A DNA stretch of 64,000 bases. Origin: a virus. Shown here piece after piece: positions 52,409 through 52,452 of this stretch. The notes under the pieces were generated by a model. It worked only from the letters and a program-made list of their open reading frames with translations, was not told the origin of the DNA and did no database searches. Within the stretch, counting starts at the first letter, position 1; every line of letters begins with the position of its first letter. The stretch is from IMG/VR virus record IMGVR_UViG_3300043539_001773; one strand, written 5' to 3'. Both the position numbers and the translations under genes were made by a program.

Positions 52409-52425
52409 ACTTTCTAAGACTGTGT

Positions 52426-52448
52426 CGTAACTATAACAGTCCTAAGGT
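52426..52448. other. 23-nt match to the 23S rRNA helix 69 region (antisense in the capsid mRNA 3' UTR)
   Basis: Plus strand CGTAACTATAACAGTCCTAAGGT versus conserved 23S CGTAACTATAACGGTCCTAAGGT (22/23). Confidence 0.7.
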
Positions 52449-52452
52449 TCTA

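Follow-up and report, generated by a model that had tools for sequence, protein, structure and literature searches.

The window (the whole 64,000-nt stretch of DNA analysed here) comes from an uncultured lake phage, and every gene in it lies on the minus strand, as do the features of the window described below. The gene at the centre of this work encodes the major capsid protein (351 aa, 52453-53508; Pfam PF25209 Phage_capsid_4, 1e-16; PHROG 3922 major head protein, 4e-28); a sigma-70-like promoter match lies directly upstream of it, and it ends with a UAA stop codon at 52453-52455. Past the stop codon, in the direction of transcription, lies a 23-nt stretch (52426-52448) that is antisense to positions 1909-1931 of 23S rRNA, which comprise the loop of helix 69, its 3' strand and its 3' flank. 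This stretch overlaps a hairpin at 52415-52444, and the hairpin is followed by an intrinsic terminator at 52379-52414, identified from the fold and a terminator scan, with a GC stem at 52387-52406, a GAAA loop and a U-tract. The next downstream gene in the ORF list (257 aa, 51551-52324) could not be assigned to a family, as a Pfam search returned no match. No ORF of 40 aa or more crosses the element region on either strand, and a megablast search of the region against cultured phages gave no match.

Two further features of the window were noted in passing. A GTTACTA box is located at 52359-52365, past the capsid terminator, and an alignment by eye of 80 relatives showed that a (G/A)TTACTA box follows this terminator in all of them (loci L001-L081), some 30 nt ahead of the next gene's ribosome-binding site. 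The window has a second intergenic copy of GTTACTA at 29395-29401 on the minus strand, with identical spacing, and the box may be a phage-specific promoter element. The long ORFs of the window contain CGG at only 2 of about 18,300 codons, with AGA dominant (471 occurrences).

The plus strand reads CGTAACTATAACAGTCCTAAGGT at 52426-52448, and the capsid mRNA therefore carries ACCUUAGGACUGUUAUAGUUACG, beginning 4 nt past the UAA. An earlier note on this DNA had pointed to a 23-nt antisense of helix 69 at this place, between the capsid stop codon and the terminator, and our comparison with E. coli rrlH bore it out: 22 of the 23 positions are identical to 23S 1909-1931, in antisense on the transcribed strand. 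The sole difference puts a U opposite G1921 and is thus compatible with a G-U pair, as the note had also recognized. The BLAST search against rRNA that it had called for, run with blastn-short on the whole window, returned this match with E = 6e-4, the next best match to 23S having E = 0.58. For a single match of 22 in 23, this value is small per window and yet not negligible across many windows, which left chance similarity or an assembly artefact to be considered. The note's further alternative of a captured fragment of rRNA was rejected, as the flanks of the 23-mer do not match 23S; seven-base matches between these flanks and the remaining antisense 23S sequence were at chance level, being reached in about half of the shuffles.

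The minimum free energy fold agrees with the hairpin drawn in the note. A 5' arm at 52436-52444 (UAGGACUGU) pairs with a 3' arm at 52415-52423 (ACAGUCUUA) in a 9-bp stem with one G-U pair, closing a 12-nt loop at 52424-52435, and the hairpin is followed at once by the 16-bp GC-rich stem of the terminator and its U-tract (z-score of -6.4 over 91 nt). The predicted duplex between the phage RNA and 23S rRNA amounts to -40.6 kcal/mol at helix 69, compared with -25.4 kcal/mol at the next best 23S site, and the structures that compete with it are predicted to be much weaker, at -9.5 kcal/mol for the hairpin and -10.9 kcal/mol for the local fold of 23S. The loop by itself contributes a duplex of -13.4 kcal/mol, in which the 11-mer GUUAUAGUUAC complements 23S 1910-1920, that is, the loop of helix 69 and its closing pairs. 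Of this 11-mer, the six bases in the centre (AUAGUU) are left unpaired in 52 to 59 of 63 predicted folds. A search of the window against Rfam 15 gave no match at the gathering threshold, and in a permissive search of 52300-52520 the matches were far below threshold and all fell on the terminator; the other carrier loci described below matched only tRNA families.

To learn how well the element is conserved, we retrieved loci with the capsid protein rather than the motif as the query. The search returned 545 viral contigs, and the best 80 of the 545 (91-100% identity) were examined. The element was found 2-13 nt past the stop codon in all 77 loci with enough downstream sequence, in one copy per partial genome, and the terminators behind it belong to several unrelated sequence types. 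Among 49 non-redundant sequences, the positions of the loop (GUUAUAGUUAC) and of CUUAGG in the 5' arm are invariant or at least 90% conserved, while positions of the upper stem alternate between G-C, A-U, G-U and C-G pairs, which are compensatory changes. The hairpin was predicted in 47 of 50 non-redundant relatives. Because the loops vary in length, the 3' arms could not be aligned with MAFFT, and we relied instead on per-sequence folds and a permutation test in which arms were swapped between sequences. Hairpins with their own arms had a mean energy of -8.45 kcal/mol, against -6.56 ± 0.31 kcal/mol with swapped arms, and none of 1000 permutations did as well, a result that overstates independence because the sequences are related. 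The conservation and covariation that the note had asked about are therefore present in the close relatives. The U residues of UUAGG in the 5' arm never change to C, even where they stand opposite a G, suggesting a sequence constraint beyond the hairpin, which would be expected if these residues also pair with A1927 and A1928 of 23S.

The note had regarded absence from related phages, together with a lack of ribosome interaction, as evidence against its reading, and on the first point the outcome depends on distance. At 72% and at 40-46% identity, capsid relatives do not have the element, and an unrelated first hairpin stands in its place, indicating that the element was acquired within a tight, very abundant lake clade. 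These distant relatives retain a two-hairpin 3' UTR, with a small hairpin followed by the terminator (L325 1669-1760, L328 1708-1790), and it seems that the anti-helix-69 hairpin replaced an older hairpin at the same place.

The capsid gene is also present in lake metatranscriptome assemblies. In the deepest of four RNA runs, a 1157-nt contig of a close relative extends from 16 nt before the start codon through the element to approximately the end of the terminator. Such contigs fit a monocistronic capsid mRNA that ends at the terminator, with the proviso that they are assembled, strandless sequences that give neither true ends nor levels and may include carried-over DNA.

If the loop is kept for pairing with 23S, its natural variants should tend to preserve that pairing, and we compared them using sets of sequences that had not been selected by the motif. 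Variants that keep the pairing through G-U are GUUGUAGUUAC, GUUAUAGUUGC and GUUAUAGUUAU, the last in three lineages; the changes concerned are A-to-G at position 4, A-to-G at position 10 and C-to-U at position 11 (three lineages). Pairing is broken in GCUAUAG and GUUAUAUUUAC, by U-to-C at position 2 and G-to-U at position 7. The tally of five preserving and two breaking events, when about 18-36% preserving would be expected by chance, favours a kept pairing with 23S, though as a comparison of variants it is suggestive only. Outside the loop, the bases opposite G1921-U1923 vary in sequence and length within the capsid family, and some of them (GUA, GAA) are unable to pair, so that the conserved complement is bipartite, covering 1909/10-1920 and 1924-1930. 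In addition, close relatives with UUAAG have an A-C mismatch to 23S.

We also asked whether variation in host rRNA could account for variation in the phage motif. The change U1917C, which would turn the GUUGUAG variant into a Watson-Crick match, occurs in no bacterial species representative, and wobble pairing therefore explains this commonest variant. A compensated change in the stem of helix 69, G1921A/C1909U (U1909-A1921 in place of C-G), is found in at least 116 species (L344-L459); most are Chloroflexi, and the lake genera Limnocylindrus and Aquidulcis are among them. Against this form of the rRNA, the U of the window would pair with A1921 and its 3' G would wobble with U1909, leaving the total pairing unchanged, so that the variant neither discriminates nor points to a host.

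These patterns of variation could also be read in another way, in which a protein binds or processes the hairpin (an RNase, a 3'-end-stabilizing factor or an RNA-binding protein of the phage), the loop and arm are kept for this recognition, and the likeness of the hairpin to the complement of helix 69 reflects its origin or a coincidence. Protein-binding hairpins usually look like this one, with a covarying stem below a conserved loop; the middle bases vary freely and some variants break the pairing with 23S, and the unrelated first hairpin of the distant capsid relatives implies that a generic 3' hairpin is ancestral. The occurrence of the motif outside the capsid clade bears on this explanation.

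A pattern scan led us to a second capsid family (Pfam Phage_capsid) whose similarity to the first is below detection (BLASTP, E = 0.31). When loci of this family were retrieved by the protein alone, the motif was found 2-10 nt past the stop codon in 46 of 80 and was absent from the remaining 34, with a patchy distribution across clades. Fifty-two viral contigs contain the exact 19-mer TTAGGACYGTTATAGTTAC. One of these (L315) is a true 23S gene, with 30 of 30 flanking positions identical, while the flanks of the other 51 match 23S at background level and represent at least ten sequence contexts. The motif follows capsid genes, a terminase gene, a gene for a 499-aa ORF and a DUF5661 gene; it also lies between a Q-like antiterminator gene and a terminator, and in small units made of a hairpin, a single-stranded motif and a terminator. 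The reversed 19-mer, used as a control, was found in two contigs, and two other universally conserved 19-mers of 23S, from the sarcin-ricin loop and from 2581-2599, were each found in no viral contig. Conservation of the element extends over hundreds of contigs and many samples, its carriers span lakes, sea, gut and culture, and the match to 23S extends over 19-24 nt. This breadth, the covariation of the stem and the count of 51 contigs against 2 and 0 in the controls leave practically no weight to chance similarity or an assembly artefact, and the controls exclude chance as it had been listed among the note's alternatives.

The orientation of the motif is uniform. Genes, tRNAs or terminators served to tell which strand is transcribed, and on that strand the motif was antisense to 23S in 11 of 11 judgeable contexts and never sense, an outcome with a probability of about 2^-11 under random orientation. 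This result bears on a role at the DNA level, in which the sequence would be an I-CeuI-like homing-endonuclease target or decoy, or a recombination or attachment site that copies rDNA. The rDNA encoding helix 69 is indeed a classic target of LAGLIDADG endonucleases, and the note had named an endonuclease target or decoy as an alternative. A DNA site, however, would not require the antisense orientation, and it would not call for compensatory changes at the RNA level. The I-CeuI-type site of about 26 bp is also incomplete, as the right half GGTAGCGA that follows CCTAAGG is missing and the window reads CCTAAGGTTCTATTA instead; no endonuclease gene adjoins the element, and the neighbouring ORFs of the window have no nuclease domain. 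We therefore consider a DNA-level role very improbable.

Several of the other contexts have features of their own. In four independent groups, cultured Vibrio phages among them, the motif is located within phage tRNA arrays or close to them, and in three independent groups it was seen to share the strand of the tRNAs. The arrays contain an 80-125-nt non-tRNA RNA in which a covarying 12-bp outer stem, as long as an acceptor stem plus a T arm, encloses ACUUAGGAUGUUAUAGUUAC (L091 1617-1698 on the minus strand, L093 5158-5282, L166 1769-1852, L174 5766-5896), and this RNA is probably released by tRNA-processing enzymes. In a contig of lambdoid type (L298 1062-1560), the motif between the Q-like antiterminator gene and an intrinsic terminator lies at the place from which, in lambda, the short 6S leader transcript is made. 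A second conserved segment, (U)UCGCUAC(C), which is the complement of the adjoining 23S 1929-1937, was found in five other contexts (L132, L289, L096, L159 and the Vibrio phages); it is downstream of the motif in the first four, once within the loop of a terminator. No such second segment is present within 150 nt of the motif in the window or in either capsid family.

To identify cultured carriers, we used the antisense of E. coli 23S as a query against records of cultured phages, which yielded five Vibrio phages: PWH3a-P1, qdvp001, R16F, 10AMN and P018-4. Their motif, GCCTTGGGACCGTTATAGTTATGGC, differs from the perfect complement at two positions, both compatible with G-U pairs, and lies within a conserved, non-coding and unannotated block of about 120 nt (approximately 56200-56320 in qdvp001, KT932418, corresponding to L342 1490-1610; also L460, L461 and L462). 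In R16F and 10AMN, the block is about 100 nt upstream of tRNA-Arg(TCT). The main segment complements 23S 1907-1930, and the block also contains TCGCTACC, the complement of 23S 1929-1936. Two tRNAs of R16F are annotated on the strand opposite to that called by ARAGORN. The existence of cultured carriers (PWH3a-P1 on V. natriegens; qdvp001, R16F and 10AMN) makes the pairing idea directly testable.

These contexts speak against the protein-site explanation in several respects. No neighbouring gene is shared among them, and the motif also occurs in unstructured form between two hairpins and within tRNA arrays. A protein site would not be expected to track rRNA over 19-24 nt in lineages from lake, sea, gut and culture, nor to be accompanied repeatedly by a second segment that complements the adjoining rRNA, and other universal 19-mers of rRNA are absent from phage contigs. 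We consider a protein site, on balance, a doubtful explanation that deserves some weight. Another explanation would retain the base pairing and change the partner, with the motif acting as a seed for a host or phage mRNA or a tRNA precursor, or as a sponge for free rRNA fragments. The architecture, a conserved seed followed by a U-tailed terminator, resembles that of sRNAs derived from 3' UTRs; the only Rfam matches to such sRNAs are weak and driven by the terminator. On the other hand, the window has no complementary site elsewhere, helix 69 is the best predicted site in 23S by 15 kcal/mol, and 23S rRNA alone presents an identical 20-nt target across carriers from very different habitats, with presumably different hosts. 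A different target is accordingly unlikely, and less probable than a protein site.

The comparative data point to complementarity to helix 69 as the selected feature. Since the motif recurs in many unrelated phages, we propose that phages probably use it to pair with the large ribosomal subunit of the host. In the reading that we prefer, to which we assign a probability of roughly 0.6, the phage RNA would base-pair with helix 69 of free 50S subunits or pre-50S particles, the contact starting from the loop. The earlier note's idea that the capsid mRNA binds or modulates ribosomes thus survives as the leading interpretation. Its proposed tie to pervasive +1 decoding at CGG does not: carriers of the second capsid family use CGG in an ordinary way (37 of about 13,300 long-ORF codons), and the occurrence of the motif in these phages, within tRNA arrays, in phages from gut and sea and in cultured Vibrio phages uncouples it from CGG recoding. 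For the window phage, a tempting link to CGG recoding is thereby removed as unsupported.

Helix 69 is among the most conserved RNA segments in biology; it forms bridge B2a and acts in decoding, termination and recycling. In the mechanism that we envisage, the capsid mRNA would carry at its 3' end a cis-encoded RNA module that presents GUUAUAGUUAC in or at the loop and CCUUAGG in the 5' arm. The loop would make the initial loop-loop contact with helix 69, which would be exposed only on free 50S subunits or assembly intermediates, and as the hairpin opens the pairing would spread into the 5' arm. Because the stop codon is only 4 nt upstream, a terminating ribosome would open the hairpin, and every such ribosome would melt the 5' arm and expose the full antisense sequence just as its 50S subunit is released. 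A captured 50S subunit would be unable to form bridge B2a, and in this way the RNA would tether large subunits or withhold them. The active form could be the abundant capsid mRNA itself or a fragment of about 70 nt that ends at the terminator, and candidate outcomes are subunit sequestration, local re-use of subunits, and interference with the assembly or modification of helix 69. Unmasking at a stop codon does not apply to the tRNA-array and sRNA-like forms, for which a general action in trans is the probable mode. The more specific proposal, that an antisense RNA used by many phage lineages captures free 50S or pre-50S particles and thereby controls subunit joining, recycling or late assembly, with the capsid form unmasked by the terminating ribosome, is put forward tentatively, at somewhat less than even odds.

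There are considerations that weigh against such a function. Within the mature 70S ribosome, bridge B2a buries helix 69, which is folded and modified, and the m3-pseudouridine at 1915 is unable to form a Watson-Crick pair. Loop variants that break a pair with 23S are tolerated. The element is also dispensable, being absent from the distant capsid relatives and from 34 of the 80 loci of the second family, and withholding 50S subunits brings no obvious gain to a phage that depends on translation. As for accessibility, a peptide nucleic acid (PNA) directed against helix 69 is described as inhibiting the growth of E. coli (Kulik et al. 2017, cited in PMC7038079), which, to the extent of that account, indicates that helix 69 can be reached by antisense oligomers. 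The near-universal sequence of helix 69 means that a phage RNA of this kind could act in any host. If the proposal is correct, this widespread family of phage RNAs would be the first case in bacteria of a natural nucleic acid that binds a ribosomal functional centre, and a new layer of phage control over host translation, providing a direct RNA-to-rRNA route of host takeover that has no described precedent in bacteria.

In the literature, we found the motif string only in rRNA primers and came across no paper on a phage RNA complementary to 23S, the one related molecule being the synthetic anti-helix-69 PNA. New in this work are the unbiased counts in the two capsid families (77/77 and 46/80), the orientation tally, the controls with other rRNA segments and the arm-swap test, as well as the association with tRNA arrays and the cultured Vibrio phage carriers.

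The element shares parts of its design with several known systems. CopA/CopT of plasmid R1 and RNA I/RNA II of ColE1 are encoded in cis, opposite their targets, and control replication. As in these kissing antisense systems, the phage hairpin exposes a conserved loop whose sequence complements that of a loop in a structured target, and pairing would begin as a loop-loop kiss and then spread; in contrast to them, the phage element would act in trans, with ribosomal RNA as the putative target. CpxQ, SroC and DapZ are sRNAs derived from 3' UTRs that target mRNAs or other sRNAs with the help of Hfq or ProQ. The phage element likewise has its conserved pairing segment directly before an intrinsic terminator with a U-tract, so that release of a fragment of about 70 nt is possible, whereas its only universal complement is 23S rRNA. 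Viral RNAs that contact ribosomes are known from eukaryotes, where the TURBS of caliciviruses (18S helix 26), the BYDV-type 3' element (18S) and the TCV 3' element (60S) support reinitiation or cap-independent initiation, in most cases through the small subunit. These elements resemble ours in being viral RNA near a stop codon or in a 3' UTR that is thought to hold a ribosomal subunit, and they differ in that the phage element is directed, putatively, at the bacterial large subunit. To our knowledge, no bacterial or phage counterpart of a viral mRNA element directed at the large subunit has been described. The closest parallel in terms of target is the anti-helix-69 PNA, which addresses the same rRNA hairpin and, as far as the citing account goes, shows that occupancy of this hairpin harms translation (Kulik et al. 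2017, PMC7038079); unlike this man-made, short and by design inhibitory molecule, the phage element is part of a natural transcript.
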